DNA of 64,000 nt from Microscilla marina ATCC 23134 (lineage in GTDB: Bacteria; Bacteroidota; Bacteroidia; Cytophagales; Microscillaceae): contig NZ_AAWS01000006.1 in NCBI RefSeq assembly GCF_000169175.1, positions 71,192 through 135,191 on the forward strand, written 5' to 3'. The position numbers were made by a program, and so were the translations under genes. The number at the start of each line of letters is the position of its first letter. The stretch's first letter is position 1. The notes beneath the pieces were generated by a model, which saw only the letters and a program-made list of their open reading frames with translations, had not been told where the DNA came from and did not search any database. This document shows positions 23,783 through 58,910 of the stretch, piece by piece.

Positions 23783-23958
23783 TTTGATCATTAGTGATCT
23801 TTCATAAATAATTTGAGCCATTAAAGTGTATCTATTGCCCTCATTCTTCTCAAAAAAAAAGCTTCATAGCTTTGGCTATGCACCGTTTTTTTTGAATCGT
23901 CTGAGAACAATATATTTTCTTGAATTGGCACATCTTCTTTTTTCCAGATCACTTACAG
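23783..23958 (-). mobile_element. MITE-like element, family B, copy 1 (TIR TTAGTGATCT...AGATCACTTA; internal A9-hairpin-T8 module)
   Basis: ~99% identical over ~166 bp to reverse complement of 58733-58910; 10-11 bp terminal inverted repeats; no coding capacity (ORF 23826-24104 is spurious). Confidence 0.6.
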
Positions 23959-24061
23959 TATTTCACTGTTTTAAAAAAAAAGGTACTGGCAGCTTGTACA
24001 CCAGTACCCAAAATAACAAAATGATTGACGTTAGTGATAGTTTTTATATCAAAAATATATT

Positions 24062-24553
24062 TTACTTCTCTTTAAAGTCCAGTGCCACCGAATTGACACA
24101 ATAACGTAAACGGGTTGGCTCTGGGCCATCACGAAACACATGCCCCAAGTGACCTCCACAAGCACTACAGTGTACTTCTTCGCGTACCATACCATAGCTA
24201 TAGTCTTTTTTTACATTGACCGATTTTTTGGACAATGGTGCCCAATAACTTGGCCAACCAGTACCAGAGTCAAACTTAGCTTTAGACGAAAACAAAGGGT
24301 TTTTACAAGCAACACAAGTATATATGCCCCCTTTTTTATGGTTCCAGTATTTGCCCGAAAAAGCTTTTTCAGTGCCTTGTTCACGCATTACATGAAAAGC
24401 CAATGGACTTAAAATTTCTTTCCATTCCTGATTGGTTTTAGACACTTGAAAGTTAGTGTTTGCTGGCGAAGTAGTGACGGCATACTTTGGTTTCTGGAGA
24501 CATCCTCCTAATAAAAACATAGCCGTATAAATTATTATAAATAACTTCTTCAT
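24062..24553 (-). CDS. msrB: peptide-methionine (R)-S-oxide reductase MsrB, lipoprotein-type signal
   Basis: 163 aa; CxxC ... GWPSYW ... HCSACGGHLGHVFRDGPEPTRLRYCVNS SelR signature; N-term MKKLFIIIYTAMFLLGGC. Confidence 0.85.
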   Translation of the reverse strand: MKKLFIIIYTAMFLLGGCLQKPKYAVTTSPANTNFQVSKTNQEWKEILSPLAFHVMREQGTEKAFSGKYWNHKKGGIYTCVACKNPLFSSKAKFDSGTGWPSYWAPLSKKSVNVKKDYSYGMVREEVHCSACGGHLGHVFRDGPEPTRLRYCVNSVALDFKEK

Positions 24554-24842
24554 TTATTTTGATGGGTTCTAGATTCTTGGTAACAGGTATATTGTATACA
24601 TTATTATACATGTAACAACATGCTTTTATTCAAAGAACGTACATTAATCTGATAATGGTTGTTAAGCAGGTGTTAATCAAGCCCTAAGCATTTGTTAAAG
24701 CTAATATAGGGGCAAAAAAAGACAGGCATCGGTTGAGCCTGTCTGAGGTGAAAATTGCACTATATAAAGAAACCGTTTGTAGGACAGTATTGTTTATTTG
24801 TTCAAATGGCTTAAAAATTTATCACAATGATTGCCTAAGCTC

Positions 24843-25766
24843 CTAAGCAAGTTGTTTTTCTTGCTCAAGCTCTTTTTGAATTTGTTTGGTTGTTTTGGTT
24901 GATCCATCAGGGCTCCAGCCTGGGGGCGAAAACAAATACATAAACTTATCTTGCCAAGTTTTAGCGTTCTTCACGTCTTGCCATAAATCACGGTATTCGT
25001 GAAAAACGATATTGACTAACTTGTTAGAATTAGGCCCTTTAATTACCCCAAACTCTGCCGGAACATTGTCGTCATACGCCTTGTATGTACCAAATAATCT
25101 ATCCCAAAACATAAAAATGGCTGCATGGTTTTTATCAAGGTATTCAATGTTTCGTGAGTGATGTACTGCATGTAACTTAGGAGTATTCATGAACTCTTCC
25201 ATAACACCCAGCTTAGGGAGTTTAGAAGAATGTAACCAATACTGATAAATGGTACTAACCCCCATTACTGTAACAACCATTACTGGGTGAAAACCTAAAA
25301 TGGGTAACCACAACCAAAACAGTGACTTATAAAATAGGGTAAAAATACCGTTGCGAATGGCATTACCAAAATTGTATTGCTCTGAAGAATGGTGCACCAC
25401 GTGGGCTGCCCACAACACCCTTACAGTATGACTCAGGCGATGATACCAGTAAAAACATAAGTCATCGGCAAGGATTAACAATACCCACACCCACCAGATA
25501 GTCCAGTCAATATATTGGTAACCCAACCACTCAACCCGCAAGTCAGCAAAACCTTTGTATAACATATAAAACACTGCTATAGAAGCGGTTTTAGTAAAGA
25601 TAGCTACAATACCCGAAGTAATTGCTACTTGAAAACTACTCCAAAAGTCTTTGGCATTATAGTGGTCCTTGTCGTGTTTATAAGTAAGCAAGTACTCACT
25701 AATGATTAGCACAAAAAAGAAGGGAACACCATAATAGAGGGGGTTGGTAATCTCTAAATTCATCAT
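24843..25766 (-). CDS. fatty-acid hydroxylase / sterol desaturase superfamily membrane enzyme
   Basis: 307 aa, multi-TM, His boxes HRLSH, HVVHHSSEQYNF, HAVHHSRN. Confidence 0.75.
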   Translation of the reverse strand: MMNLEITNPLYYGVPFFFVLIISEYLLTYKHDKDHYNAKDFWSSFQVAITSGIVAIFTKTASIAVFYMLYKGFADLRVEWLGYQYIDWTIWWVWVLLILADDLCFYWYHRLSHTVRVLWAAHVVHHSSEQYNFGNAIRNGIFTLFYKSLFWLWLPILGFHPVMVVTVMGVSTIYQYWLHSSKLPKLGVMEEFMNTPKLHAVHHSRNIEYLDKNHAAIFMFWDRLFGTYKAYDDNVPAEFGVIKGPNSNKLVNIVFHEYRDLWQDVKNAKTWQDKFMYLFSPPGWSPDGSTKTTKQIQKELEQEKQLA

Positions 25767-26022
25767 ATCTTAAAGAAAATTAATTTATCATCATATTACA
25801 ATTAAAATGATGAGCCCAGATAACTTTTACTACTGACTATCAGTTAATTATGTATTTAAAAAATCCACCTAACCTTTGATATATTAAAATCCAGTGACAA
25901 AGATAAAAGGAGAATCTTCATGCTACAATAAATCAAGGCTCTTTCTTGCTTCATTTACCTATGTTACTTACCCTATAGATACTGAGAAATTCACACAATT
26001 GTGTCAGTATGCAGTTCAATAT

Positions 26023-26697
26023 TTAGCTTTTAACATCTTTAGTCAACGCCTCTTCTACGATTTTAATACCAGATGAGGTTCCAATTCTATCTGCTCCAGC
26101 AATAATCATTTCCTGGGCTTTTTCATACGACCTGATTCCCCCAGAGGCCTTGATGCCTACAGTATCGGGCAAAATATCACGTAATAAACGAATATGTTCT
26201 ACCTTTGCGCCTTCAGGTGCATACCCCGTAGATGTTTTCATAAAATCAACCCCGGCATCTACACACACCTTGCTTGCTTCCCTTATTTCATGGTCATTCA
26301 GGTAAGCAGTTTCAAGAATGACCTTCATCATTGCTTCTTCGGCATGAATGACTTGAGAAAACCAAGCCATCTCCTGTTTAATCCACGCATAAGCGTTGCA
26401 CTTGATTGCAGAGATATTAATTACAATGTCTAACTCATTTACCCCTTCTTTTAAGGCGCTTTCTATCTCTTGCATTTTTACTTCGGCTCGTTGGTAGCCA
26501 AAAGGAAATCCTACCACAGTAACCAGTTGCACAGGGGCTTTGCCTAAATCACGCCTGGCTTTTTTTGCCCAATAAGGAGGTACACATATTCCTATAAAGT
26601 TATGAATAACGGCTTCTTCCACCAATGTTTCTATACTTTCGTAAGTCACGGTAGGTTTAAGGTTGGTATGTTCTATATACTCATTAATGTTTTGCAT
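26023..26697 (-). CDS. deoC: deoxyribose-phosphate aldolase
   Basis: 224 aa; Schiff-base region VGIKASGGIRS, DFMKTSTGY. Confidence 0.8.
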   Translation of the reverse strand: MQNINEYIEHTNLKPTVTYESIETLVEEAVIHNFIGICVPPYWAKKARRDLGKAPVQLVTVVGFPFGYQRAEVKMQEIESALKEGVNELDIVINISAIKCNAYAWIKQEMAWFSQVIHAEEAMMKVILETAYLNDHEIREASKVCVDAGVDFMKTSTGYAPEGAKVEHIRLLRDILPDTVGIKASGGIRSYEKAQEMIIAGADRIGTSSGIKIVEEALTKDVKS

Positions 26698-26926
26698 ATT
26701 TTGGGGAGTTTTTGCTGTATCAAGTACAAAGTTAAACTATTTCGGGTATTCTATCCATACCTGTATAGAGCTATTGTTGTTTAGATTAGCCATAGGCACT
26801 TCTATGATAGAGCTTTGGGTGGTTCTAAACTATTATATAACCCCAAACCACATGTAAGCTCAAATAGCCTCGTAACTATACCCTAATACCAACTTACCAC
26901 TGTGTAAACATAAAAACCGTTGTTTG

Positions 26927-27219
26927 TTAAGGAACATGATCGCCCCGTAAACGGGATTTCGGGCATAGCCCTCAACAATAACCCCGATAAGAAATCGGGA
27001 CTTTGAAGCTGTCCGGTTTAGAACATATTAGCTTCGCAGAGCTTGAACTTCGTTCTGCGGTTATCTTTACTGACTTTCGTTACTTTTAGCCTTTGGCAGA
27101 GCTCGGCGCAGCAGGGCTGCAGCCATCGGTTTTCGCCGTAGCTATGGCTACGACTGCAAAAAGTGCCTCAGTCGAGTATACGCCCTCAATCTCGACACTT
27201 ATTTTGAATATGTTCCTAA
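26927..27219. mobile_element. MITE-like hairpin-rich element, family A, long copy (~293 bp; termini TTAAGGAACATG ... TATGTTCCTAA)
   Basis: Shares both arms (AAGGAACRTGATCGC...CTGTCCGGTTTAGAACA...CTGACTTTCGTTACTTTTA...GCAAAAAGTGCCTCAGTC...CCTCAATCTCGACACTTATTTTGAAYATGTTCCTAA) with 38653-38848; internal variable palindromes (cccgtaaacggg, cgcagagcttgaacttcgttctgcg, gtagctatggctac). Confidence 0.6.
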
Positions 27220-27524
27220 GGCGAAGGTAGGAGGTATACAGCAGTGACTTTTGGCGTGATTGATGCTGTTTTTAACATTTTATTGGAGCAAAAAAAGACT
27301 AACATCAAAATATTCTGTTTCCTAATGAGGAATTACCAAAAAAAGATTTTAAAATGAGGGCTCGTTAGAATTTAAATCAATTTTTAGCGTAATTTAGGAG
27401 TTGGTTGTCTTTATATTGTTGTAAAAAACAAAGCAAGGTTGAGCTGGTTTCTTGGGCAAAAAAATGACTTTCTGAGTTGATTAAAAAATGCCGTAAACCG
27501 TTGGTTAATAATTAATAATTACGA

Positions 27525-29231: not shown

Positions 29232-29481
29232 ATCTTTAGGACACACACCATCAAACCTTCCTCATTCTTAACACTTATTCACCTCTTAAAAGCAAAATGC
29301 TTGGGAAGTAGGTCTGCTTAAAAAGCCTGCATACCAACTACAAAACCACCTCACCTATTTCTTCGGTTATCCTGCACCTAATGCTCTCAGGCTGGCAAAT
29401 TCAGCAAAATGGTAGTACCTTCGTGTCAAATACCTAAGCGCTTGTTTAAATCCATATTCTGATCCCCAAAAATAACAGATA

Positions 29482-30057
29482 ATGAAACCGTTTATTCTTA
29501 CCGAATTTATTTTTATACTTTTAAGTATCACTGGTTTTGTTCTAAAAATAGCCTTGGTGTTTTGGGGTACTCCAGTGCTCATTATTGGCTTACTGGGTTT
29601 ATCCCTCATTTATTTTAGGCAAGGCTTGCGCCCTGCTTTACTCAATGATCAGCCTACTGCTGCCAGTGACCGCTTTTTTATTCCTCTTTACAAGTTAGGG
29701 TACCTTTTATTTGCCATCAACACCTTGGGGGTACTGTTCAAAAGTATGCTTTGGGACACTCGTTTTTTAGGCTTTAGTATGTTTATACTCATGGCATACA
29801 CAATATTTATTGCTGCTCAGGTACTCAAAGGAAAATTTTTTTTCAAAAAACTCCTGATCAAATCGATCTTCATTGCTACACTGGCACTTACCTTTTATCA
29901 AACACCTTTGTCTAAGTTGATCCAACTCTATTACCGTGACCAACCTGAGTTTGCCCAAAAGTTTATTGAATACCGAGAAAACCCTCAGAACGAAGTCAAG
30001 AAAAAAAACTATCTTGAAGCACGCAAAAAGATGTTAAACAAAAATGCAAAAAAATAA
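29482..30057 (+). CDS. hypothetical integral membrane protein (4-5 TM)
   Basis: 191 aa, hydrophobic helices; overlaps next gene start by 14 nt. Confidence 0.5.
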   Translation: MKPFILTEFIFILLSITGFVLKIALVFWGTPVLIIGLLGLSLIYFRQGLRPALLNDQPTAASDRFFIPLYKLGYLLFAINTLGVLFKSMLWDTRFLGFSMFILMAYTIFIAAQVLKGKFFFKKLLIKSIFIATLALTFYQTPLSKLIQLYYRDQPEFAQKFIEYRENPQNEVKKKNYLEARKKMLNKNAKK

Positions 30058-38034: not shown

Positions 38035-38219
38035 GGTTAGGGAGCAAACAAGAAATAACCTACCCATTTTGTAGCTGCTCTTTTGCCCCAAGACTTTGTT
38101 ACTTTTTGCAGCCATAGCTCTGCTATGACTTTAAAAAGTGCCGCGTCTCAGAATAAAATAGCTAGCAAAAATCCAGTATCCTATTTTTAATTGCTCCCTT
38201 ACTTTGTTGTATGGGTTGA

Positions 38220-38546: not shown

Positions 38547-38652
38547 CGTTAAAATAGATAGAATGTGCTCAATGCTTTGTAACTTTGCATTCTATATCTA
38601 TTTTTTCAGACTTGCCTGTAGCTGCACCCTGTTAGATGCGGGTAATGTTTGA

Positions 38653-38848
38653 TTAAGGAACGTGATCGCAATAACTGTCCGGTTTAGAACACATCCTCTT
38701 TCCTGACTTTCGTTACTTTTATTGTCCGTGGTACCATCCCACGGTCTGGCTCAACATCCCCCGGATGTTGCCTTGCCCGCAAAAAGTGCCTCAGTCAGCC
38801 TTGAGTTTATGACCTCAATCTCGACACTTATTTTGAACATGTTCCTAA
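38653..38848. mobile_element. MITE-like element, family A, short copy (~196 bp)
   Basis: Termini TTAAGGAACGTG ... CATGTTCCTAA; arms collinear with 26927-27219; internal palindromes ccgtggtaccatcccacgg and catcccccggatg; ends 12 nt before methyltransferase start. Confidence 0.6.
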
Positions 38849-38860
38849 ACATTATTTACT

Positions 38861-44592: not shown

Positions 44593-47500
44593 TTGATTAA
44601 CTCAATGAATATTAAAACAGCTATTTACATTCTATTACTGTTTATTACTTCATCATCAGGCTTTGCACAACTACAACATTCACCTCATATCAAGCAATAT
44701 ACTACCGACAATGGATTGCCTCATAACATTGGGTTTGATGTAATCCAAGACAGCAAAAATTATATTTGGCTTGGTACCGATGATGGGTTGGTACGTTTTA
44801 ATGGTAAGCGCTTTAAGACTTATCGAAGCGCTGATGGCTTACTGAGCAATTATATCATCAACCTGACAGAAAGCAAAGAGGGTAAACTATGGATTGGCTC
44901 GTGGAAAGGTGGGCTCAACTATTTATACAACGACTCTATTTTTACCCCTAAACTTGATTACCCACTTTTTCGAGTATCTTATGTAGGTGTTCAGGGTGAT
45001 AAACTGTGGCTATCTGACCGTAGGTCTACACTATACCCTTATACTTATAAAAACAATGAATGGAAGTTTGGCCATCGTAAAAAATCCACTTTCCTGTACC
45101 AAACCAAGGATTCTTTCCCTAGATACAGCCATTATATACCTCCGTCTGAATACTCAAAATCAGGTTATACACGAAAACTAGATTATACCCAAGCCTATCT
45201 TACTACCACCAAAGCTATGTTATTATTTGGTTCACTTCCAGGAGTATGGCAATACCATAATGACACAACTTTCAGTCGTTTTTACCCTAATATAATCAAA
45301 AATGATACAGTATACGACATTTCTCAAGACGCTAACCAAACTTATTGGGTAAGCTGTAAAGGTAAAATTTTAAAAATAGATGCGGCAAAAAATGTAGAGG
45401 TGATTCAAAAGGGATTACCCAATCAAAATATTACCAATGTAGAGGTGACTTCTTCAGGTAAAATCTATTTTATTACAAACTATATCAATCTCAACAACCG
45501 GGGATTTTATAGCTATGACCCTACCACAGCCACTACGGTTGACCTTAAATCCAAACTTGGATTAAAGGTATTGCCAGTAGCAGTAAAAGTAGATCACGAA
45601 GATAATGTGTGGCTTATTACCAATGGTGAAGGAGTGTACTGTATGTTATCTCATCCTTTTACCAATTATGACAAACAAGATGGACTTACAAATATTTTTG
45701 TAAATACAATTAATGAAGATAAAGAGGGAAACATTTATGTAGGTACTATCAATGGGGTATTTGTTTATAAAAACAATGTTTTTTCAAGAAAGTATTTACT
45801 TGGGAAAAATGCTTCAGAGGAAGTAAACAGCATAATAAAAGATAAAAACCAATCATTATTGATTAGCATTTTACAAAATATTAAGCAAGGTTCACAAAGT
45901 CACCTATTCAGGAATACAACGAAAAAAGTTGAAAAACTCAATATCCAGTCGTTTAGTAAAAGCCCATACCTTGATAGTCAAAATAAAATTTGGACATTTC
46001 AAGATAATACTATTGTTTTTTGTGATTATTCTGAGACCAACTCTTTTTATACCAAGAGCTGCAAACTTGGTAAAGACCTAATGATCCATCAAGTATTAGA
46101 GTACCAAGGCAAACATTGGTTAGCTACTAATAAAGGGCTTCTTGCCTTTAAGCATACCATTTTAAGCAATAATAGTCTGGAGATTACCCTTACAGATACT
46201 CTTAATATAGCTGATGGTTTGAGCAGTAATTTTATAAACCAAGTAGCCATAGGTAAAAAAGGAGCACTATGGATAGGCACCAAAGAAGGAATATGTAAGT
46301 GGGTCAATGGAACCATAGCGTGTTTTGGCACTTCAGACGGGCTGGTATCTAACAACTGCAACCAGGTACTGGTAGATCATCAAGGTATTATATGGGTGGG
46401 TACTTCTAAAGGCTTGTCTCGTTTTGATGGCAAGCAATTTATCAACTATACCCATAAAAATGGACTCATTGCTTCTGATATTAACTGTTTGTTTTTAAGC
46501 AATAAAAAACAACTTTGGATAGGTACAAGTAAAGGAGTATCCAGGTTAGACCTTAGTAAACCCTTTAAGAAGGCGGCACCGCCCAAACTATACATAGAAG
46601 ATATTCAGGTCAACGGCATTGATCAGAGATTAAATACTCCCCTTCAGGTTAAATATCACTCTTCCCTTAAGTTGTACTTCTCAGCATTGACTTATACCTA
46701 CAACGAAGGGGTTCGCTATCAGTACCGACTCAAGGGAGATAAGTGGCAAGAAACCAGCCTAGCTTTTGTAGAGTACAGCACCCTTACCAAAGGAACCTAT
46801 ACGTTTGAAGTAAGAGCCAAGAAGTTTAACAGTGTCTGGTCTGCATCTACTAAAATAGTATTTGAGGTAATCCCTCCTTTTTGGGATACCTGGTGGTTCA
46901 AAGTATTGGTAGGTTTAGGCTTTGTTCTACTGGTATACGGCATTGTCAAGTGGCGGTCGCAACAACTGATAAAAGATAAACTTAAGCTAGAACAAGTAGT
47001 AGTACAACGAACTTTTGAGCTTGCCCAACAAAAAGAAGAAATTGCTTCACAAGCAGAAAAGCTTAAAGAAATGGATCAAATAAAATCTCATTTTTTCTCT
47101 AATGTTTCGCACGAACTTCGTACGCCACTTACTCTCATTATTGGTCCTGCCGAACAAATACTTCATTCGGCTGAAAGCACTACCACCCAATCTCACTCAA
47201 AGTCTATATTAAGCAATGCCCAACGCCTTTTAAAGCTGATTAACCAACTGTTAGACTTCTCTAAACTAGAAAGCGGCAAACTGATTTTACAACTTAAAAC
47301 AGGTAAATTTCACGTTTTTTTGAAAAACATTATCTATTCTTTCGAGTTGCTTGCCAATCAAAAAAACATTGGTCTTAAGTTGCTATTGCATCAAGAGGAG
47401 ATAATGGGTGAGTTTGACCATGACAAGCTTGAAAAAGTGTTTTTTAATTTATTGTCCAACGCACTGAAATTTACTCCCGAAAATGGCTTGGTTACAATAG

Positions 47501-48621
47501 AAGTAAAACAAAAAGAGGAGATGGTACAAATCAAGGTATCGGATACAGGGATTGGTATCCCTCCTCAGTCACTGCCTTTTATATTTGACAGGTTTTATCA
47601 GGTAGATGGATCACAAACCAGAACACACGAAGGTACTGGTATTGGGTTGTCACTGGTAAAAGAACTGTTGGAACTACACGGAGGCAATATAAAAGCAAGC
47701 AGTGAAGTGGATAAAGGCACCACATTTTTTATTCAACTCCCCATTGTTTGTCACTCTTCAAAAGCAATGGCTCCTACAAAAGAAACAGCTCTCACGCTGA
47801 CCGACCCAGTAGATATAAATACACAAGAAGATCAAACACCACCTCCTTTGCCAGTTGAGGCAAGTCATACCGTATTGGTGGTAGAAGATAACCATGAACT
47901 CCGACAGTTTATAAGGACAGAACTAGCCGTTACTTATCAGGTAATAGAAGCAGCAGATGGCGTAGAAGGTATTGAAAAAGCTAGCAACCAACTGCCCGAC
48001 TTGATTATAAGTGACCTGATGATGCCAAAAGCTGATGGGTTGGAGTTATTAAGAACACTTAGAAATAACCCACAAACTTGCCACATACCTATCATTATTT
48101 TATCGGCAAAGGCATCTTTTGAGAGTAAAATTACTGGATTAGAAACTGGTGGAGACGACTATCTCACAAAACCGTTTAGTCCTAGAGAGCTTGTGCTTAG
48201 AATAAAAAATACACTGGAAAGAAGGGAAAAACTAAAAGAGGCATTTATGCAGCAAATGGCCAAGCCAGAGCTTGTAGTAGAACCCTCTCAGGTAACGGCT
48301 ACTTCTATGGATGAAGTTTTTTTGACAAAAGCGCTTGATACAGTAGAAGAACACCTCAATAATACAGGGTTTGATGTTTCAGCATTTAGCAAAGAAATGG
48401 GCATGAGTCAATCGGGCTTGTTCAAAAAACTCAAGGCTATTACTAATTTATCTACCACTGAGTTTATTCGTACTATTAGGCTTAAGCGAGCGGCTTCGTT
48501 GATTAAACAAAAAAGTGGCCGTATCGAAGAAATTGCGTTTCAGGTAGGTTTTAATGATGTATCTTATTTTAACCGTTGTTTCAAAAAACAATTTGGAGTA
48601 ACCCCAAAAAAATACCAGTAA
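44593..48621 (+). CDS. hybrid two-component system protein: periplasmic beta-propeller/Y_Y_Y sensor - TM - HisKA/HATPase - receiver - AraC HTH (copy 1)
   Basis: 1342 aa; H-box SHELRTPLT, G-box DTGIGIP, receiver VLVVEDNHELRQF...DLMMP, AraC helix-turn-helix at C-terminus. Confidence 0.85.
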   Translation: MINSMNIKTAIYILLLFITSSSGFAQLQHSPHIKQYTTDNGLPHNIGFDVIQDSKNYIWLGTDDGLVRFNGKRFKTYRSADGLLSNYIINLTESKEGKLWIGSWKGGLNYLYNDSIFTPKLDYPLFRVSYVGVQGDKLWLSDRRSTLYPYTYKNNEWKFGHRKKSTFLYQTKDSFPRYSHYIPPSEYSKSGYTRKLDYTQAYLTTTKAMLLFGSLPGVWQYHNDTTFSRFYPNIIKNDTVYDISQDANQTYWVSCKGKILKIDAAKNVEVIQKGLPNQNITNVEVTSSGKIYFITNYINLNNRGFYSYDPTTATTVDLKSKLGLKVLPVAVKVDHEDNVWLITNGEGVYCMLSHPFTNYDKQDGLTNIFVNTINEDKEGNIYVGTINGVFVYKNNVFSRKYLLGKNASEEVNSIIKDKNQSLLISILQNIKQGSQSHLFRNTTKKVEKLNIQSFSKSPYLDSQNKIWTFQDNTIVFCDYSETNSFYTKSCKLGKDLMIHQVLEYQGKHWLATNKGLLAFKHTILSNNSLEITLTDTLNIADGLSSNFINQVAIGKKGALWIGTKEGICKWVNGTIACFGTSDGLVSNNCNQVLVDHQGIIWVGTSKGLSRFDGKQFINYTHKNGLIASDINCLFLSNKKQLWIGTSKGVSRLDLSKPFKKAAPPKLYIEDIQVNGIDQRLNTPLQVKYHSSLKLYFSALTYTYNEGVRYQYRLKGDKWQETSLAFVEYSTLTKGTYTFEVRAKKFNSVWSASTKIVFEVIPPFWDTWWFKVLVGLGFVLLVYGIVKWRSQQLIKDKLKLEQVVVQRTFELAQQKEEIASQAEKLKEMDQIKSHFFSNVSHELRTPLTLIIGPAEQILHSAESTTTQSHSKSILSNAQRLLKLINQLLDFSKLESGKLILQLKTGKFHVFLKNIIYSFELLANQKNIGLKLLLHQEEIMGEFDHDKLEKVFFNLLSNALKFTPENGLVTIEVKQKEEMVQIKVSDTGIGIPPQSLPFIFDRFYQVDGSQTRTHEGTGIGLSLVKELLELHGGNIKASSEVDKGTTFFIQLPIVCHSSKAMAPTKETALTLTDPVDINTQEDQTPPPLPVEASHTVLVVEDNHELRQFIRTELAVTYQVIEAADGVEGIEKASNQLPDLIISDLMMPKADGLELLRTLRNNPQTCHIPIIILSAKASFESKITGLETGGDDYLTKPFSPRELVLRIKNTLERREKLKEAFMQQMAKPELVVEPSQVTATSMDEVFLTKALDTVEEHLNNTGFDVSAFSKEMGMSQSGLFKKLKAITNLSTTEFIRTIRLKRAASLIKQKSGRIEEIAFQVGFNDVSYFNRCFKKQFGVTPKKYQ

Positions 48622-49062
48622 CTTTGATGAGTTATTGGCAAATACCCCTCACAATCAACCGACAAACAACATTTTAATACAAATTACAGATATGTCTGGT
48701 TTTTTTCAACATACGTCCAAGTATCCCTACCAGGTTTTACCTTCCTTTGCATCATCAAATAATACAAATAACTGGTCGGTTATCAAACTACAAATTGCAA
48801 GTATGGAGCTTGTCTTGTCTTTTTAAGTGTAAGCAAAAACAGTGATTTTTATCTCCTGTTGGTAACCCACTCTTAAAAGTCAAGATAAGTGATGATATAA
48901 GATAAAGCATATTACAAAAGCAGTGATGATTTATCTTCAATAAGTGACTCAAATTTTGAAAGATAAAGGCAAGTTGAAAGGCTTGCCTTTTACTTACTTG
49001 TTGGTTTGTAACGAAGTCCGGCTAACCACTTATTTTACTTAAAACTTAACCAGTATTCATCA

Positions 49063-51125: not shown

Positions 51126-51140
51126 TATCTCATTTTACAA

Positions 51141-51656: not shown

Positions 51657-51683
51657 TTTTAAATATTACTTTACACGCTATTA

Positions 51684-51730: not shown

Positions 51731-51949
51731 ACGGTTGAGTTGCTTACCTATTGAACTCAAAAAATGACAGGACATGTGCCTTTTCCTTGTTATTATCCTA
51801 TGCAAATAGCAAAATATCACAAAACACTTCGCTTTTACAGCAACCCTATAAGTCAACAATACGTTTTTCTAAAACAAAATCTCATTACTTGTCCTCTTCA
51901 TGGGTAAGGTTAATCCTTAAAAATCAGTTTTCACCTAATTTCATTCCTT

Positions 51950-52354: not shown

Positions 52355-52719
52355 CTTCCAAAACAGGCAAATAATGCTGGTGTAGCATTATTTGCCTGTT
52401 TTCATTCATTAAATATACAGTACTGTCCACTGCTGTTTAGCCAGCCATCAAGTCTAACACCTTAACCACTAAATATCTAACTTATTAACCTCAAAAAAAA
52501 CGAATCAAGTTCGGCTTGACACATCTAATACCAAAACTTCCAGTAAACAACCGCTTTAAACGAGCTCTAAAAGAATTTTAAAGCTGAAACAGCAAAAGTT
52601 CAAGAAAAACCACTAGTGTTATTTATTGGGCAACAATAGATATACCTGCCTTGTTGTATGTAGTTATTTTGAATAACTTTATCTATCAAGCAAAACTACT
52701 ACTATTTACTACTTCTTTG

Positions 52720-55700
52720 ATGAGAATTACTGTAACTATAGCTTTACTATCAACCCTTTTACTAAACGGCTGTGGGGTGTTTGCCCAGCCCCAGTTCAAC
52801 GTAAAACACTATACAACTGACAACGGGTTGCCCCATAACATAGGCTATGGGCTACTGCAAGACCGTAAGGGGTATATTTGGATTGGTACTGATGATGGCT
52901 TGGCACGATTTGATGGAAAGAGTTTTAAAGTCTATCGTACTGATGATGGCTTATTGAGCAATTATATCATCGATATAGTAGAAGATCGCCAAGGAGTACT
53001 GTGGTTGGGTAGTTGGAAAGGTGGGGTTAACTGTATAAAGGACGATTCAGTATTTACACCGACGCTTAACAAACCTCTGTTTAGGGTAGCCTATATTGCC
53101 AAGGATAAAAATCAACTATTTTTATCAGATTTAGGTAATACAGTACGTCATTACACCCTCAATAAAAACCAATGGCTCAATCGTCCTTCTGGCTTAGTTT
53201 ACCTTACTCACGACACTACTCTTACCTATGCGCAGAAGAAACAAACTAAAAAACTGATCAATGTACTCAATGTGCAAATACACTTGGCAAGTGATGGTAC
53301 ACCTTTATTTTTTGGCAAATTCCCTGGAGTTTGGCAATACCAAAACGACCAAATTTTTACTCCTTTTTGCAGCAACATTATTCGCAATGATTCTATTACT
53401 CACCTTTCGCAAGATACCCAAGGAAGGTACTGGTTGGGGACTCAAGGCAAAATACTGATAATTGATGCCCAAAAGCAATTGGATAAAACATACCATCATT
53501 TGCCCAATGAAAGTATTTATAGCATAAAAGTAGCCTCTTCGGGCGTGATTTACTTTCTCACTAACTATCACAAATTTAGTCATCGAGGGTTTTATAGCTA
53601 CAACCCAACCACTCAAGAACTAACTGATTTAAAAAAAGCCCTCAAGCTCAAAACAACCCCTGTTGCCATAGAAATAGACAAAGAAGATAATGTATGGCTC
53701 ACTACCAACGGCGATGGAGTGTATTGTATTAGTCCTTCATTGTTTCAACACTACGATCAAAAAGATGGCTTACCCAATGTCTTTATCAGAAATGTAAAAG
53801 AAGATAATGCTGGTAACATATACGTAGGTACTATTGATGGTTTGGTGCGCTACCAAAACGGGAAATTTGTCAATCAACAAGTACTTGACCATTCCTCTCG
53901 CTATCAAGTACTTAGAATGTTTTTAGATCGCCGCCACAATGTTTTGACATCAGTAGCTCCTTCAGAGTTGAATACTTCCAATAACATATTTTTGTATAAA
54001 GTAGCACACAAGACATCAACAAAACTCTACAATGCTTCTTTTTATAACCCATCATATGTAGACCAACAAAACCGCCTCTGGAGCTTTACTAACAAAAGTA
54101 TTTTTTGGTATCCTTACCCAAAAAAATCACCGTTCAAAGTCCCTTATTATTATTTTAAAAAAGGGCTGATAGTCTCACAAATATTTGAGCATGAGGGGCA
54201 ACACTGGCTTGCCTCTAACCAAGGTCTACTGGCTTTTGATACGCATAAGCGTCCAAATTTACGTTTTTTAGATACCCTCAACACTCGCCAGGGCTTGATT
54301 AGTAATGATGTAAATGTGGTAAAAAAAGCGCCTGATGGGGCATTATGGATAGGTACCAAAACAGGGTTGTGTCGCCTTAAAAATGGACAAATCACTTGTT
54401 TTACTCAAGCAAAAGATGGATTGATACATAATAACTGTACCCAACTAGAGTTTGACCGATATAACCGTTTATGGATAGGCACTCTTCAGGGTTTATCGTG
54501 TTTTGATGGACAAAGCTTTATCAATTATAGCCATAAAACAGGACTCATTGCCTCTGACATTAACTGCTTGTTTGCTGATAGTAAACAAAAACTTTGGGTA
54601 GGTACAAGCAAAGGCATATCGGTGTTAGACATTCGTGCATCGCTCAAAAGAATTCCCCTTGCCAAGGTATACATAGACCAGCTTCTACTGAATGATGTGC
54701 CACAAGAGATTCATTCTACACTAAGGGTTAATTATCCCTCTAACCTCAAAATCTATTTTAATGCATTGAGCTATACTTACCCCAAGGGCATAAGGTACCA
54801 ATACCGTTTGAATAAGGGCAAGTGGAAAAACGTCCCCCAGCAAGTAATAGAGTACAACGCTTTTGAACAGGGGAATTATATTATTGAGATAAGGGCTAAA
54901 AAATTTAACAGTGGATGGTCACTGCCTAAGAACATTTTGCTCATTGTACGCCCCCCTATGTGGCTTACCTGGTGGGCAATCAGCTTGTACATTATAGTGG
55001 GGTTATTTATGATGTGGGGGGTGATCAGGTGGCGGTCAGCCACATTGGTAAAAGAAAAACTAAAGCTAGAACAGGTGGTCGTTCAACGAACTTATGAGCT
55101 TGCCCAGCAAAAAGAAGAAATTGCTTCACAAGCCGAAAAACTCAAAGTATTGAACCAGGTACAGTCCAACTTTTTTTCTGGCATTTCGCACGAGTTAAGG
55201 ACCCCACTCACGCTTATTGTAGAACCTGCCGAAAAGCTACTACAATATAACCAAGAAGAGCCTGGGAAAAGGTATACACAAACGATACTTGGCAATGCCC
55301 AACGATTGCTCAGACTTATCAATCAATTGATGGATTTCTCGAAATTGGAAAGTGGTAAAATGACTTTGCAGCTTAGTAACAACAGTTTATACCAGTTGTT
55401 GGTAGAGGTAATAGCATCGTTTGAACTGCTTGCCCAGCAAAAAAACATTGAGCTTAAGCTTACTGCATCAAATCAGGCTTTACACTATAAGTTTGATCAC
55501 GACAAGGTCGAGAAAGTAGTTTTTAATTTAATTAGCAATGCCCTAAAGTTTACCCCAACACAAGGAAACATAGAGGTTCATTTGTGGCAAAGCCCTGATG
55601 AGGTAAAGATCACTGTTACTGATACAGGCATTGGCATTGCTCCTGCAGATTTGCCTTTTGTATTTGATCGTTTTTATCAGGTAGATGGCTCTACTACCAA

Positions 55701-56721
55701 AAACTACCCAGGAACAGGCATTGGGCTTGCCTTGGTAAAAGAGCTGGTAGAGCTACACGAAGGCAGCATTGAAGTAACCAGCCAGGAAAACAAGGGAAGT
55801 ACATTTGTGGTGAAGTTCCCCTTTACCTCAGTCAGTGCTAGTGAGGGCATCTCAGTAGTTATTGATACTCCACTGTATGGTACACCAGTAGCCTCTACCC
55901 CACTAGCAAATGCTTCTCCTGAGCCAGGTAGCCAGCCAGGTACTATCAACCTGCCTACAGTATTAGTCACAGAAGATAATTCTGAGTTACGGCAATTTAT
56001 TGCCTCTGAGCTCATCGGTACTTATCGAGTAATAGAAGCCACCAACGGGGCAGAAGGCATTGAGCGGGCAATCAAGCAGTTGCCCGACTTGATTATCACC
56101 GACATTATGATGCCTCAAACAGATGGTTTTGAGCTGGTAAATACACTCAGGAACAACCCTGCAACAAGCCATATTCCTATCATTATTTTATCGGCTAAAG
56201 CCTCTCCCGAAAGCAAGCTCAAAGGGTTAGAAATCGGGAGTGATGACTACCTTACCAAACCATTTAGCTCAAAAGAACTCTTGCTAAAAGTAAGAAACAT
56301 TATAGGCAGAAAAGAAAAACTATGGCAGGTTTTTCAACAAAGCCTGACTAAACCCAACCTACCTATTGAACCTTCGCAGGTAACTGCCACCTCTATGGAT
56401 GAGGCATTGCTACAAAAAGCACTTGAAATAGTAGAAGTTCACCTTAACAATACCGCCTTTGATGTTACACTTTTTTGTCAGGAAATGGGCATGAGTCGCT
56501 CTAGTTTGCACCAAAAACTCAAGGCTTTGACCAATATGTCTACTACCGAGTTTATCAGAAGCATTCGGCTAAAAAGAGCGGCTTCATTGATTCAACAACA
56601 AAGTGGACGGATAGAAGAGATTGCATTTCAGACAGGCTTCAATGATGTATCTTATTTTAACCGTTGTTTTAAAAAACAATTTGGGATGACGCCAAAAAAA
56701 TACCAACAACCAAATACATAA
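52720..56721 (+). CDS. hybrid two-component system protein (Y_Y_Y sensor-HisKA/HATPase-REC-AraC), copy 2
   Basis: ORF 52651-56721; start moved to MRITVTIALLSTLLLNGCGVFAQ; paralog of 44593-48621 with nucleotide-level near-identity in HisKA region. Confidence 0.85.
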   Translation: MRITVTIALLSTLLLNGCGVFAQPQFNVKHYTTDNGLPHNIGYGLLQDRKGYIWIGTDDGLARFDGKSFKVYRTDDGLLSNYIIDIVEDRQGVLWLGSWKGGVNCIKDDSVFTPTLNKPLFRVAYIAKDKNQLFLSDLGNTVRHYTLNKNQWLNRPSGLVYLTHDTTLTYAQKKQTKKLINVLNVQIHLASDGTPLFFGKFPGVWQYQNDQIFTPFCSNIIRNDSITHLSQDTQGRYWLGTQGKILIIDAQKQLDKTYHHLPNESIYSIKVASSGVIYFLTNYHKFSHRGFYSYNPTTQELTDLKKALKLKTTPVAIEIDKEDNVWLTTNGDGVYCISPSLFQHYDQKDGLPNVFIRNVKEDNAGNIYVGTIDGLVRYQNGKFVNQQVLDHSSRYQVLRMFLDRRHNVLTSVAPSELNTSNNIFLYKVAHKTSTKLYNASFYNPSYVDQQNRLWSFTNKSIFWYPYPKKSPFKVPYYYFKKGLIVSQIFEHEGQHWLASNQGLLAFDTHKRPNLRFLDTLNTRQGLISNDVNVVKKAPDGALWIGTKTGLCRLKNGQITCFTQAKDGLIHNNCTQLEFDRYNRLWIGTLQGLSCFDGQSFINYSHKTGLIASDINCLFADSKQKLWVGTSKGISVLDIRASLKRIPLAKVYIDQLLLNDVPQEIHSTLRVNYPSNLKIYFNALSYTYPKGIRYQYRLNKGKWKNVPQQVIEYNAFEQGNYIIEIRAKKFNSGWSLPKNILLIVRPPMWLTWWAISLYIIVGLFMMWGVIRWRSATLVKEKLKLEQVVVQRTYELAQQKEEIASQAEKLKVLNQVQSNFFSGISHELRTPLTLIVEPAEKLLQYNQEEPGKRYTQTILGNAQRLLRLINQLMDFSKLESGKMTLQLSNNSLYQLLVEVIASFELLAQQKNIELKLTASNQALHYKFDHDKVEKVVFNLISNALKFTPTQGNIEVHLWQSPDEVKITVTDTGIGIAPADLPFVFDRFYQVDGSTTKNYPGTGIGLALVKELVELHEGSIEVTSQENKGSTFVVKFPFTSVSASEGISVVIDTPLYGTPVASTPLANASPEPGSQPGTINLPTVLVTEDNSELRQFIASELIGTYRVIEATNGAEGIERAIKQLPDLIITDIMMPQTDGFELVNTLRNNPATSHIPIIILSAKASPESKLKGLEIGSDDYLTKPFSSKELLLKVRNIIGRKEKLWQVFQQSLTKPNLPIEPSQVTATSMDEALLQKALEIVEVHLNNTAFDVTLFCQEMGMSRSSLHQKLKALTNMSTTEFIRSIRLKRAASLIQQQSGRIEEIAFQTGFNDVSYFNRCFKKQFGMTPKKYQQPNT

Positions 56722-56914
56722 CATACTCAATTACAGTAATTTAAAAACACTTACACATATCTTCAATTTTTCTATACATACGTCCAAGTCTCCCCATTTT
56801 TTTTCCTCTTCCTTTGCATCGCTAACCTACTGAGGCTACAATCATAACTTATGGAGCTTCAGGTATTAGTGTTGAATTATTTAACATTTATTAACAAACA
56901 AAACATAATTCATT

Positions 56915-57367
56915 ATGCAATCTGTATTTAAATACCTTTTAGTTTTTGTATGCGCTGCTTTTATATGTGTATCATGTAATAGCACTGAAGAAGTAAACCC
57001 TGCTACTCAAAATACACCTGAAGCTATCAGTAGTCGTGTGACAGATGATATACTACAAGCTGGTGACGTTGTAACCCCAGGCATTAACAATGGAACCATT
57101 ACTTATAGCTATCAAGTAGAGGGTAACTCTAACACCAGTAGAACCTGGATCAAGGTAAGCGATTTTGCGGAAGGCTGTTCTTGCAGTAGTGACTGCCCAA
57201 GATTAATCATTAAAGATATAAATAATAATACCATACTGGATACTAACTGCCAGCCACTTACTAAGTATGTACGAGTACCTGGCAACTATTTTTCTGTAAC
57301 CATATATGATCCAAGTTGGATGACAAGCAACGGCTCTGATGTTAACATTCAGATTCAGAGCTGGTAG
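56915..57367 (+). CDS. small Cys-rich lipoprotein, paralog family member B
   Basis: 150 aa; MQSVFKYLLVFVCAAFICVSCNSTEE; tandem paralog of next gene. Confidence 0.65.
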   Translation: MQSVFKYLLVFVCAAFICVSCNSTEEVNPATQNTPEAISSRVTDDILQAGDVVTPGINNGTITYSYQVEGNSNTSRTWIKVSDFAEGCSCSSDCPRLIIKDINNNTILDTNCQPLTKYVRVPGNYFSVTIYDPSWMTSNGSDVNIQIQSW

Positions 57368-57456
57368 TGATATACCACCCAAAACCTCATAGGACTTGTT
57401 TCTTACGAGGTTTTTCATCATATCTATTGGTTCTAACAAGCAAAACGTAACTCATT

Positions 57457-57963
57457 ATGCAATCTATGTTCAAATACCTTTTAGTTTTTGTATGTGCAGC
57501 TTTTATATGTGTATCATGCAATACTACCGAAGAGGTCAAGCCGGAGGCTCAAACATCTACTATTAGTAAAATAAATCAACGTTCTACCTGTAGATTAATT
57601 CCTTCAAGTATGCTTCCACAAAACATAACCACAGGTCAAATTGTCACGCCATCTGTTACAGGTAACGGTTCTAATACAATACTCAAAACATTTACTTACA
57701 CAGTAACTAACCCACGTAATGCTTCCAGAGTATGGCTACATGTAAAAGATTTTGTTGATTGGTGTGGCGCTATAGATAACAACGATAGTTCTCCCTATAC
57801 TACCCTGGTGATTAAAGATGCTAATGGCAACGAGTTGTATAACCAAAGTTGTGAAGTAGCCAGGTATGTAAAAGTACCAGGTAATAAATTTACTGTCACC
57901 CTGAAAGTACATTGTGCACTCACTATCACCCCAGAAGCCAATATTGAAGTAACCAATTTGTAA
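57457..57963 (+). CDS. small Cys-rich lipoprotein, paralog family member C
   Basis: 168 aa; MQSMFKYLLVFVCAAFICVSCNTTEE; 5' end and ~20 bp upstream ~90% identical to member B. Confidence 0.65.
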   Translation: MQSMFKYLLVFVCAAFICVSCNTTEEVKPEAQTSTISKINQRSTCRLIPSSMLPQNITTGQIVTPSVTGNGSNTILKTFTYTVTNPRNASRVWLHVKDFVDWCGAIDNNDSSPYTTLVIKDANGNELYNQSCEVARYVKVPGNKFTVTLKVHCALTITPEANIEVTNL

Positions 57964-58021
57964 TCAAATTAAGTAAAGGGTTATATACAATGACCTAATA
58001 CTATCTAAAACCTAACTATAT

Positions 58022-58058
58022 CAGCGATGCTTCTCCTCTGAAAGCATCGCTTTTTTTT
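58022..58058 (+). terminator. rho-independent terminator after lipoprotein C
   Basis: agcgatgctt-ctcctctgaa-agcatcgct then T8. Confidence 0.65.
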
Positions 58059-58075
58059 GTAATAAATACAATTCT

Positions 58076-58627
58076 ATGAGTTATCAAATATATTACATGT
58101 ACACAGCCCCTTATACTACAGGTGTTGTCACATTATTATCATTTATTTTTATCATCGTTATATTACTCGATCTGGCAAAGGTATCTGCTGCTTTATTCTC
58201 TGATTTTGAAAAATATAAAGCCAGAAAAGCTATGATAAAACCAATGGTAAAACACAAAAGTAAAATATTGAGCTGGGGTGGCACACTATTAATAGGAGCC
58301 TTGGCTTTTACTCATTATTTCTTATCCGAAACAGAAACAAACCTCAAGGCAGGAGGTGTTATGTTTGGGGTAGCACTTGGGGTGGGAGTTTTATTTTTGA
58401 TTGCAGGCTTAATCCATGCTTATCTTCAACCCAAAATAGAAAGTAAGAAAGGGTTAGTCATTTATTTTATTGTTTTGTCATTATTGTGTGGAGTCGTTTT
58501 GTACGCTACCTATGTTTTTAGCATAGTGCAACACCCCGAATTGATGGAAAAATGGCAGGAGTTACAATCAATAAATATACAAAACCCACTTTTTGTGGGG
58601 GTACATAAAACTGCTTATTTTTCTTAG
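58076..58627 (+). CDS. hypothetical integral membrane protein (183 aa)
   Basis: multiple hydrophobic helices. Confidence 0.5.
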   Translation: MSYQIYYMYTAPYTTGVVTLLSFIFIIVILLDLAKVSAALFSDFEKYKARKAMIKPMVKHKSKILSWGGTLLIGALAFTHYFLSETETNLKAGGVMFGVALGVGVLFLIAGLIHAYLQPKIESKKGLVIYFIVLSLLCGVVLYATYVFSIVQHPELMEKWQELQSINIQNPLFVGVHKTAYFS

Positions 58628-58732
58628 AAATCAGTACCCATTGTAAAATAAGAAGATTCAAATTAATACTAAACCAGCGTATTTTACAGGATAACTTGTC
58701 AATTATCCTAAAAATAGAAATAACATTATCCG

Positions 58733-58910
58733 TTAAGTGATCTGGAAAAAATAAGATGTGCCAATTCAAGAAAATATATTGTTCTCAGACGATTCAAAAA
58801 AAACGGTGCATAGCCAAAGCTATGGAGCTTTTTTTTTGAGAAGAATGAGGGCAATAGATACACTTTAATGGCTCAAATTATTTATGAAAGATCACTAAAG
58901 TTGATCAAAC
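58733..58910 (+). mobile_element. MITE-like element, family B, copy 2 (inverted relative to copy 1)
   Basis: reverse complement matches 23783-23958 with ~2 substitutions and one 3-nt indel; termini AGATCACTTAA / TTAGTGATC; ends ~45-85 nt before next gene start. Confidence 0.6.

Follow-up and report, generated by a model that had tools for sequence, protein, structure and literature searches.

The window analysed here, a 64,000-nucleotide stretch of the Microscilla marina ATCC 23134 genome, contains two inverted copies of a short repeat, a miniature inverted-repeat element (MITE), here denoted copy A and copy B. A repeat search of the window placed the arms at 23791-23955 (+ strand) and 58734-58898 (- strand), 165 nt long, 99% complementary and 34,778 nt apart. 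The copies and their surroundings are as follows.

22134-23621, - strand: hypothetical protein of 495 aa, no Pfam match, encoded downstream of copy A; start codon 170 nt from the MITE
23783-23790, + strand: flanking TTTGATCA, outside the element, missing from the 5 other copies
23791-23955, + strand: copy A with its TTA repeats, 'F' orientation on the + strand (GTGATCTTTCATAAAT... first)
23791-23793 and 23953-23955: TTA target-site duplication of copy A
23794-23952: copy A, element proper, 159 bp
23794-23819, + strand: left terminal inverted repeat (TIR) of copy A, 7 bp perfect (GTGATCT); 26 nt, 18 positions matching the other arm
23852-23893, no strand: central module of copy A, with A9 (23852-23860), hairpin CATAGC-TTTG-GCTATG (23865-23880) and T8 (23886-23893)
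23927-23952, - strand: right TIR of copy A (GTGATCTGGAAAAAAGAAGATGTGCC on the - strand)
23981-24009, - strand: intrinsic terminator of msrB, outside the MITE; stem of 11 pairs (terminator scan) or 12 (fold), then T9; conserved
24062-24553, - strand: MsrB gene (SelR domain), upstream of copy A
58076-58627, + strand: hypothetical protein of 183 aa, encoded upstream of copy B; stop codon 106 nt before the MITE
58734-58898, - strand: copy B with its flanking TTA (TAA on the + strand), 'F' orientation on the - strand
58737-58895: copy B, element proper
58737-58762, + strand: right-type TIR of copy B
58796-58837, no strand: central A-run/hairpin/T-run module of copy B, hairpin at 58809-58824
58870-58895, - strand: left-type TIR of copy B
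58899-58910: flanking TTGATCAAA, similar to TTTGATCA, outside the element, 3 nt from copy B
58995-60098, + strand: putative membrane protein of 367 aa, encoded downstream of copy B (annotated start; a 381-aa GTG ORF runs from 58953)

Pairwise alignment of the two copies showed 2 substitutions and no internal indel (98.8% identity); identical stretches of 72 nt and 73 nt run without interruption. Within the window, two probes, one of 29 nt from the terminus and a degenerate one of 26 nt for the TIR, matched only copies A and B, against no match in 100 shuffles. Repeat search, alignment and shuffles thus bear out the two near-identical inverted copies with 2 substitutions of the original prediction. 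Its 3-nt indel and its start at 23783 both fall in the flanking TTTGATCA motif, outside the repeat; the corresponding motif beside copy B is ancestral, being conserved in relatives that lack the element. The TIRs, predicted to be 10-11 bp, proved to be 7 bp when perfect pairing is counted (GTGATCT/AGATCAC), with direct TTA repeats on both sides. Beyond these 7 bp the arms continue as an imperfect palindrome, identical at 18 of 26 positions at the tips and at ~68% over 162 nt.

Further copies and empty insertion sites

Five further copies, 90-98% identical, were found at unrelated loci of an uncultured Microscilla sp., bringing the family to 7 copies in two genomes; these numbers are lower bounds, at least 2 in M. 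marina and at least 5 in Microscilla sp., and so low a copy number is a point against the MITE reading. The flanks of the seven are mutually unrelated, similarity begins and ends at the TTA-bounded edges, and all seven share the sharp boundaries TTA-GTGATCT...AGATCAC-TTA. The first 31 nt including TTA (23791-23821 in copy A) are invariant among them. Two independent Logan unitigs of M. marina stop 28-29 nt within the MITE, as expected for a dispersed repeat.

The spacer between agmatinase and speD provides an orthologous empty site. In M. marina (L014) it holds a single TTA and reads TTTCA-TTA-ACAATCC, whereas in Microscilla sp. (L004) it reads TTTCA-TTA-(E1)-TTA-(F2)-TTA-GCAATCC, where E1 is the family of the window MITE and F2 a related family described below. 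The flanks align right up to the TTA on both sides and are ~88% identical over 600 nt each side. This empty site demonstrates mobility and defines the MITE: it is 159 bp long, has perfect TIRs of 7 bp, and is flanked by a target-site duplication (TSD) of 3 bp, TTA. The MITE inserts at TTA/TAA, duplicating 3 bp, and sometimes exactly at a stop codon, which is restored by the duplication or by the first base of the MITE: the flanking TAA in L002 is the stop codon of the upstream ORF, and agmatinase ends with TAA where the site is empty and, in the filled allele of L004, with TAG, made of flank and the G of the MITE.

The two window sites are also empty in relatives. At the spacer between msrB and the 495-aa gene the MITE is absent in four relatives, in which synteny and the msrB terminator are conserved; at the site of copy B it is absent in two, Microscilla sp. 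(L021) and L020, and the similarity of L021 to the window restarts at 58895, the MITE boundary. The absence at both sites indicates separate, lineage-specific insertions; the TTA duplication that each copy has on both its sides likewise marks each as a separate insertion. Both copies entered intergenic spacers that already existed, in each case beyond the end of a gene, and since M. marina and the sister Microscilla species diverged the MITE has reached different sites in the two. The MITE copies are 97.6-98.2% identical between species compared with 87-91% for orthologous DNA at the same loci, an excess that requires either horizontal transfer or a MITE recently active in both lineages. Together, the seven sharp-edged copies, the base-precise empty site and the empty window sites uphold the view of a discrete MITE, as opposed to a duplicated promoter or part of a larger duplication. 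We are confident that the window copies are independent insertions of a small, non-coding, TTA-duplicating MITE, a new family of an ordinary kind, and that their bracketing of 34.8 kb is incidental.

F2 resembles E1 in length and aligns with it end to end (nhmmer E = 3.6e-9). It has different termini, carries the same A-run/hairpin/T-run centre, is flanked by TTA/TAA in both orientations, and forms tandem arrays with single shared TTAs; E1 adjoins F2 in L003 as well as in L004. E1 probably belongs to a larger Microscilla superfamily with common size, target and central module and different termini.

The 34.8-kb segment between the copies

The left end of the interior (msrB, FA hydroxylase, DeoC and genes for 190-aa and 605-aa proteins) is syntenic with relatives across junction A, and the right end (hybrid kinase, small ORFs) across junction B. 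Relatives without the MITE share the order MsrB, 495-aa gene, AsmA at junction A and hybrid kinase, small ORFs, 366-aa gene, MM-CoA mutase at junction B, which shows that the sequenced arrangement is ancestral. Housekeeping-type genes lie in the interior (msrB, DnaJ-family protein, molybdopterin oxidoreductase, M1 peptidase, methyltransferase), and no mobility gene (transposase, integrase) was found in its 34.8 kb. Conserved gene order at the junctions, the lack of mobility genes and the core genes at the left end indicate that the segment is no mobile or accessory unit, although it had been called an accessory region. The picture of inverted terminal copies of one element bracketing a gene set would suit a composite transposon or mobile island, with the MITEs as ends of a 35-kb acquired or movable block. 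Synteny of both interior ends with the exterior in MITE-less relatives already contradicts this reading, to which we give practically no credence; the housekeeping-type interior, free of transposase and integrase, and the separate TTA duplications around each copy argue the same way.

The pair might instead serve as a recombination switch that flips the segment. Tracts of 72-73 nt are in principle long enough for RecA-dependent recombination, the repeats span 165 nt at 98.8% identity, and since both copies are intergenic, inversion would break no gene. However, gene order at both junctions is that of the MITE-less relatives, so the sequenced form is the ancestral one, no recombinase or invertase gene was found in or near the segment, and the window copies are independent insertions like the five elsewhere. 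A dedicated switch is thus very unlikely; judged from the repeats themselves, copies A and B are a possible substrate for occasional homologous inversion of the 34.8 kb.

Folding and the central module

The body of the MITE is an AT-rich, non-coding, almost fully palindromic DNA transposon remnant; folded over its full length, the element forms a single long hairpin (z = -4.6 and -5.6). For both window copies, the strand co-directional with the neighbouring genes folds better than the other (-49.7 vs -40.8 kcal/mol) because of G-U pairs. The strong fold, this strand bias and the conservation of the copies between species, above that of the orthologous DNA compared, could be read as marks of a family of small structured RNA genes. 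Yet the MITE matches no Rfam family, no compensatory change occurs at any of the 56 predicted pairs, and neither promoter nor terminator frames the unit. Moreover, TTA duplication and empty sites attest insertion by transposition, and two of the seven copies are reversed relative to local transcription. We hold an RNA gene, as opposed to selfish DNA, to be highly improbable.

Wherever the neighbours of a copy are known, the genes on its two sides run in the same direction. That both window copies lie between such genes, and face the downstream gene in the same way, had been noted and stands for the window; it does not extend to a family rule, as the orientation relative to local transcription is 5:2.

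The predicted A9, hairpin CATAGC-TTTG-GCTATG and T8 are present as described. The module is terminator-like on both strands, with a 6-bp stem that ends 4-5 nt short of the T-run. The MITE might have been domesticated as a regulatory cassette, kept because its centre is an intrinsic terminator or insulator working in both directions (a role proposed for SPRITE) or because it has an outward promoter (as in Correia and BrickBuilt); it would then stop transcription of the gene upstream and control how the membrane or secreted-protein gene downstream is expressed. In keeping with this, both strands of both copies carry the terminator-like pattern (3-5 sites vs 0.4-0.6 expected), the fold of the module is more stable than those of shuffles (z = -3.4 to -3.8), the centre recurs in F2 despite its different termini, all known neighbours are co-directional, and MITEs with a terminator-like motif or promoter are documented (PMC10969869). 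The stem, however, is short and distant from the T-run, and pairing of the A:U tracts gives most of the folding energy. The strong msrB terminator, retained in the four MITE-less relatives, sits between msrB and copy A, 25 nt before the latter, and makes the module there redundant. In the oldest copy (L004) the hairpin is destroyed (z ~ -0.5). Orientation is not fixed, compensatory changes are absent from the 56 pairs, and relatives do without the MITE at both window sites. The bidirectional terminator of the original prediction therefore holds as a consensus match only, and is weakened by its short stem, its redundancy at copy A and its decay in L004; we regard a maintained regulatory role as rather unlikely. 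The effect of the MITE on its host is probably near neutral, and the transcribed hairpin or the weak centre would at most modestly attenuate read-through.

Target site, mobilisation and related elements

A 3-bp T-N-A duplication is a hallmark of the IS1031 group ('TNA', ISfinder) and of eukaryotic 'Tourist' MITEs. Judged by the length and sequence of the TSD only, the TIR/TSD signature fits IS5-family or PIF/Harbinger-type transposases, and a cut-and-paste DDE transposase of this type probably moves the MITE in trans. Canonical Harbinger elements have 3-bp TSDs and are kin to the IS5 family (PMC12730594). No autonomous partner with matching termini appeared in 185,579 representative genomes (MITE copies only), in metagenome, viral or plasmid collections, or in ~214 kb of Microscilla DNA; M. 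marina's own genome was searched within the window.

One observation counts against a symmetric DDE mechanism, which does not predict it: TTA flanks the MITE in a fixed orientation in all seven copies, never as TAA (~1/64 by chance). Strand-specific insertion 3' of TTA by a Y1/HUH enzyme, which would make the MITE a palindromic element of the PATE (IS200/IS605-derived) or REPIN kind, would be expected to give this orientation and agrees with the single long hairpin. The right end itself would then finish in TTA, with no true duplication, and TTA counts in empty and filled sites alone cannot separate a TSD from an element-borne TTA. Against such an origin, perfect inverted repeats at the tips abut TTA on both sides, separate sub-terminal hairpins and a REP-like GTAG motif are lacking, and F2 in one and the same orientation occurs with TTA as well as TAA flanks, in accord with a symmetric TWA duplication. 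We consider Y1/HUH mobilisation very improbable and favour the DDE type.

Like Tourist-like MITEs of the PIF-Harbinger group and the IS5 family (IS1031 group), E1 is short and non-coding, with TIRs and a 3-bp T-N-A (TTA/TAA) TSD; unlike Tourist/PIF-Harbinger elements, its host is a Bacteroidota bacterium and not a eukaryote. Its termini (GTGATCT...) match no IS compared.

Correia elements of Neisseria duplicate TA and have 26-bp TIRs. E1 shares with them its intergenic location, the ~100-200 bp size class and the hairpin formed when transcribed, but differs in TIR sequence and TSD (TTA, not TA), shows no sequence similarity, and is present in at least 2 and at least 5 copies against >100 per genome, so that 'Correia-type', as the element had been described, is an analogy only. 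A Correia element can contain a promoter, is a substrate of RNase III and is itself able to invert (PMC10969869). SPRITE of Streptococcus pneumoniae is a small repeat around a Rho-independent-terminator-like motif, and BOX, RUP and SPRITE cluster and insert into each other (PMC10969869). E1 abutting F2 (L003, L004) and the tandem arrays of F2 recall this behaviour, in another phylum, with another sequence and with a predicted terminator-like centre that is weak.

Like the MITEs of Porphyromonas gingivalis, E1 is a MITE of Bacteroidota; unlike them, it has no known matching IS. The P. gingivalis elements (BrickBuilt, MITE239, MITE293, MITE700) are exclusively intergenic and number 10-20 copies, and their TIRs match those of IS5-family ISPg elements (PMC4596501). 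Of 15 positions compared with the IS5-family TIR GAGACCTTTGCAAAA listed there, 10 agree in the E1 termini, which is only a lead. BrickBuilt has internal 23-nt tandem repeats and variable TSDs, whereas the body of E1 is uniform, palindromic and 159 bp long, and its TTA duplication does not vary.

Extent, copies and architecture of E1

A repeat search of the 64-kb window returned one inverted pair of 165 nt, 99% complementary and 34,778 nt apart. Pairwise alignment of the two members showed 2 substitutions and no indels inside the repeat, with similarity ending abruptly on either side, and terminal probes matched only these two copies in the window, with no matches in 100 shuffles. The near-identical inverted repeat of the original prediction is genuine. 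We denote the element E1 and read it with the GTGATCT arm first:

23791-23955, plus strand: E1 copy A
58734-58898, minus strand: E1 copy B

The predicted boundary was too wide. Eight nucleotides at 23783-23790 (TTTGATCA) and a "3-nt indel" had been counted as part of the element and belong to the flank; TTTGATCA is missing in five further copies and at copy B is kept in relatives without the element, ruling it out as part of E1. We also noticed TTGATCAAA just outside the same end of both window copies (23783-23790; 58899-58910), 0 and 3 nt away from it. Beside copy B it is ancestral flank, conserved in two relatives (loci L020 and L021). Its presence at both copies is either chance or a sign that E1 prefers targets resembling its own GATC-containing tip.

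A degenerate 26-nt pattern of both termini, searched in 185,579 representative genomes, matched five E1 loci, all of them from a single assembly, CANLRP01 ("uncultured Microscilla sp."). The searched set apparently lacks M. marina, as the two copies in the window did not appear among the matches, and the M. marina copy count covers the window only. Identity of these five to the window copies is 90-98%, and TTA flanks all seven. No other DNA similarity or synteny connects the window with the five Microscilla sp. loci, indicating that these are different loci. Alignment of the seven copies with 45 nt of flank on each side gave sharp common edges (TTA/GTGATCT ... AGATCAC/TTA) between unrelated flanks. 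E1 is thus dispersed over non-homologous places, with seven copies at seven loci in two genomes, three of these sites being empty in a related genome. Two Logan unitigs from an M. marina read set break off 28-29 nt into copies A and B, as a k=31 graph does at a dispersed repeat; E1 explains assembly breaks in Microscilla short-read assemblies.

E1 measures 159 bp plus a 3-bp target-site duplication (TSD), and all copies fall within 157-159 bp and hold no ORF of note. The terminal inverted repeat (TIR) GTGATCT/AGATCAC is perfect in 7/7 copies, and at the GTGATCT end the first 31 nt (TTA counted) are invariant throughout. At the tips the two arms agree in 18 of 26 positions, and over 162 nt their complementarity is ~68%; between them lies a centre of A9, a 6-bp hairpin and T8. 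The G+C content of E1 is 31.5%, vs 38.3% for the window. Being palindromic end to end, E1 is predicted to fold into a single long imperfect hairpin on either strand (-40.8 and -49.7 kcal/mol; z = -4.6 and -5.6). It matched no Rfam family, with only sub-threshold chance matches for the whole window at the gathering threshold and for the element at E<=1. Among the seven copies, 56 predicted pairs showed no compensatory change; since the copies are so similar (mean column identity 97%), covariation would not separate selection at the RNA level from palindromy of the DNA.

Bacteroidetes promoters carry a -7 motif, TAnnTTTG. The central hairpin contains a match to it, TAGCTTTG (23868-23875, plus strand; 58814-58821, minus strand), but in neither window copy is a -33 TTTG evident at a suitable spacing.

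Empty sites and target-site duplication

The E1 copy at the Microscilla sp. locus L004 adjoins the stop codon of an agmatinase gene whose M. marina counterpart (locus L014) encodes a protein 94% identical and equal in length. Flanks of the two loci are homologous up to the TTA on both sides and ~88% identical over 600 nt each side. The empty M. marina allele reads ...AGTTATAAGTTTCA-TTA-ACAATCCTACAG..., with a single TTA. The filled allele reads ...AGTTATAAGTTTCA-TTA-(GTGATCT...AGATCAC)-TTA-(GGAATGGTGAG...GAACAATTCC)-TTA-GCAATCCTACAA..., with E1 followed by a second, related element that we denote F2. One TTA in the empty allele, against three around two elements in the filled one, indicates that E1 and F2 are transposed DNA that duplicated a 3-bp TTA, and that E1 proper is 159 bp. 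With its base-precise empty site and 3-bp duplication, the transposition signature is unusually clean.

The sites of both window copies are empty in relatives as well. At copy A, the spacer between MsrB and the gene for a 495-aa protein lacks E1 in four relatives that keep the gene order DeoC, fatty acid hydroxylase, MsrB, 495-aa gene, AsmA; the comparison gives absence and not a base-precise empty site, the relatives' neighbouring protein being only 64-77% identical. The 495-aa protein has a 100% identical match in M. marina, on a 295-kb NCBI contig; an exact-protein query with MsrB matched no contig. At copy B, neither Microscilla sp. (L021) nor a further relative (L020) has E1 in the spacer that precedes the 366/367-aa gene, and similarity of L021 to the window restarts at 58895, the edge of E1. 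These element-free orthologous sites indicate that all examined insertions are lineage-specific. Together, the comparisons show that E1 was active after the two species diverged, inserting at TTA/TAA by a cut-and-paste type of transposition with a 3-bp duplication.

Two of the seven copies lie exactly on a stop codon. At L002 the TAA beside the element serves as the stop codon; the agmatinase gene ends in TAA in the empty allele but in TAG where E1 has inserted. Gene 3' ends are thus shown to be tolerated or preferred by E1.

Copies from M. marina and Microscilla sp. are 97.6-98.2% identical to each other, and orthologous, mostly coding DNA of the same two genomes is 87-91% identical (L004/L014; L021/window), with one fast-evolving gene at 75%. 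As no examined insertion site is shared, the E1 family seems to have been active recently in both lineages, with either a conserved master copy or horizontal transfer as its source. The repeat may serve to mark recent transposon activity or exchange between Microscilla species.

The 34.8-kb segment and the central hairpin

The DNA between copies A and B had been described as an accessory region that the two repeats might invert. We found no transposase, integrase or invertase gene in it, and in relatives both of its ends continue into the exterior in the same order, indicating that the sequenced arrangement is ancestral and that the segment did not arrive as one unit. Synteny and gene content rule out a mobile island. 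A composite transposon, in which foreign DNA travels with its flanking elements and only the outer ends bear a TSD, is also ruled out: relatives keep the gene order from interior to exterior across both junctions, and each copy has its own TTA on both sides. Because copies A and B share uninterrupted identity tracts of 72 and 73 nt, rare RecA-mediated inversion between them would be conceivable; neither an inversion switch nor a mobile island is supported. The more exciting readings of the 35-kb region are thereby removed, and no new mechanistic question is opened.

Two differences in gene content were noticed. A leucine-rich repeat (LRR) gene of 646 aa with 69-nt repeat units (60245-62185, minus strand) lies in a stretch (60236-62486) in which a 109-nt repeat family occurs 15 times, mostly at a spacing of 69 nt. 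L020 and L021 lack the gene at the syntenic position, and MM-CoA mutase there comes directly after the 366-aa gene; the stretch is either a 2.25-kb insertion specific to M. marina or a loss in the others. Two paralogous hybrid sensor kinase/response regulator/AraC genes (44593-48753 and 52651-56820; 1342 and 1356 aa) share blocks of 76-78% nucleotide identity ~8.1 kb apart, with a similar 88-nt block downstream of each; L020 and L021 have only one such gene at the syntenic place.

The centre of E1 had been proposed to act as a bidirectional intrinsic terminator. Such terminators have a stable G+C-rich stem with a U-tract directly behind it. A pattern scan did flag a terminator-like hairpin on both strands of both copies. 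Against the proposal, the stem is only 6 bp long, 3 of its pairs being G-C, and 4-5 nt separate it from the T-run; most of the folding energy of the centre comes from A:U tract pairing, and in the oldest copy the hairpin is degraded. Just before copy A, msrB has a strong terminator of its own, conserved in four Microscillaceae relatives without E1:

23981-24009, minus strand: msrB intrinsic terminator, stem of 11-12 pairs followed by T9 (U9 in RNA)

Nor does a common orientation relative to the downstream gene, as predicted from the two window copies, hold for the family: with respect to local transcription five copies point one way and two the other, which rules out such a rule.

The spacer between msrB and the 495-aa gene varies among relatives from 101 to ~770 bp. 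In one (L008, 3369-3944) an additional DUF3575 gene, which M. marina lacks, lies in the spacer before the 495-aa homolog. Another (L010, ~3700-3960) has there a copy resembling the "family A" repeats of the window (27050-27222 and 38650-38850), whose 46-nt cores (27174-27219 and 38803-38848) are 91% identical; these repeats end in ...TTCCTAAGG. The spacer looks like a repeated landing site.

The related family F2, the probable transposase and the class of E1

F2 adjoins E1 at two Microscilla sp. loci (L003 and L004). Its copies have the termini GGAAYGGTG.../...CACCATTCC, a length of ~158-185 bp, TTA or TAA flanks, and the same A-run/hairpin/T-run centre as E1:

L003, 1661-2250: F2 array
L004, 5729-5893: F2 copy
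L021, 4034-4198: F2 copy
window, 38052-38189: diverged F2 relative (nhmmer E = 1e-11)

The L003 array consists of three tandem units sharing single TTAs, with a 33-bp internally deleted mini-copy. F2 and E1 align end to end, and an E1 profile detects F2 at E = 3.6e-9. For a given orientation F2 is flanked by both TTA and TAA, as expected of a symmetric TWA duplication. E1 and F2 probably belong to one wider superfamily. A more far-reaching reading, which we regard as improbable, is that this is a Bacteroidota superfamily of "Tourist-like" TTA-targeting MITEs whose A-run/hairpin/T-run centre would be a selected, portable bidirectional terminator/insulator cassette, captured and spread by different termini and hence by different transposases, with recent, possibly horizontal, movement between Microscilla species and preferred landing on TAA stops and 3' gene ends, where insertion is harmless.

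A 3-bp TTA duplication in bacteria suggests a transposase of the IS5 family, whose members are the prokaryotic relatives of PIF/Harbinger. The IS1031 group duplicates "TNA". Such a TNA duplication, a feature of this IS5-family group and of PIF/Harbinger, appears as TTA in 7/7 copies of E1 and as both TTA and TAA in F2. E1 would thus probably be mobilised in trans by an IS5-family/PIF-Harbinger-type DDE transposase. The Harbinger elements, relatives of the IS5 family, generate TSDs of 3 bp (PMC12730594), and IS5-family-derived MITEs occur in another Bacteroidota genus (PMC4596501). The sole TIR comparison made, with a published IS5-family TIR (PMC4596501), found 10 of 15 positions alike and gives a lead. 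Searches for the parent insertion sequence returned only MITE copies with the 26-nt degenerate TIR pattern in representative-genome contigs, no match to that pattern in metagenome and viral contigs, two matches to a 20-nt terminal pattern in metagenomes (seed only, hence chance), and none by blastn of plasmids. A regular-expression scan of ~214 kb of Microscilla-related loci for termini paired at a distance of 0.1-4 kb (0.6-4 kb in the case of F2) likewise gave only MITEs.

The assignment of E1 to the prokaryotic MITEs is well supported: it is small (the class spans ~50-1000 bp) and non-coding, has TIRs, a TSD seen in filled vs empty sites, and dispersed polymorphic copies, and thus every testable feature of the class save an identified autonomous partner. 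A full-text literature search returned no paper linking Microscilla with MITEs, and among the taxa listed in a 2024 review on prokaryotic MITEs (PMC10969869) the only genus from the Bacteroidota is Porphyromonas. E1 is a previously undescribed MITE family, and as such a well-supported but ordinary finding.

Correia elements combine a TA duplication with a specific 26-bp TIR. E1, in contrast, duplicates TTA and has a TIR starting from GTGATCT; it is somewhat Correia-like in its working and not a member. REP/REPIN and IS200/IS605-derived PATE elements make no TSD, carry a sub-terminal hairpin at each end and a 5' tetranucleotide (GTAG in REP), and insert strand-specifically. E1 differs in having TTA on both sides, true inverted-repeat tips, no local terminal hairpins and no GTAG. 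The sole feature pointing to that type is an orientation bias: TTA is not palindromic, yet in fixed element orientation all seven copies are flanked by TTA and never TAA, for which the chance is ~1/64. With a core that resembles a terminator and insertions that nest or cluster, E1 recalls the SPRITE, BOX and RUP elements of pneumococcus (PMC10969869).
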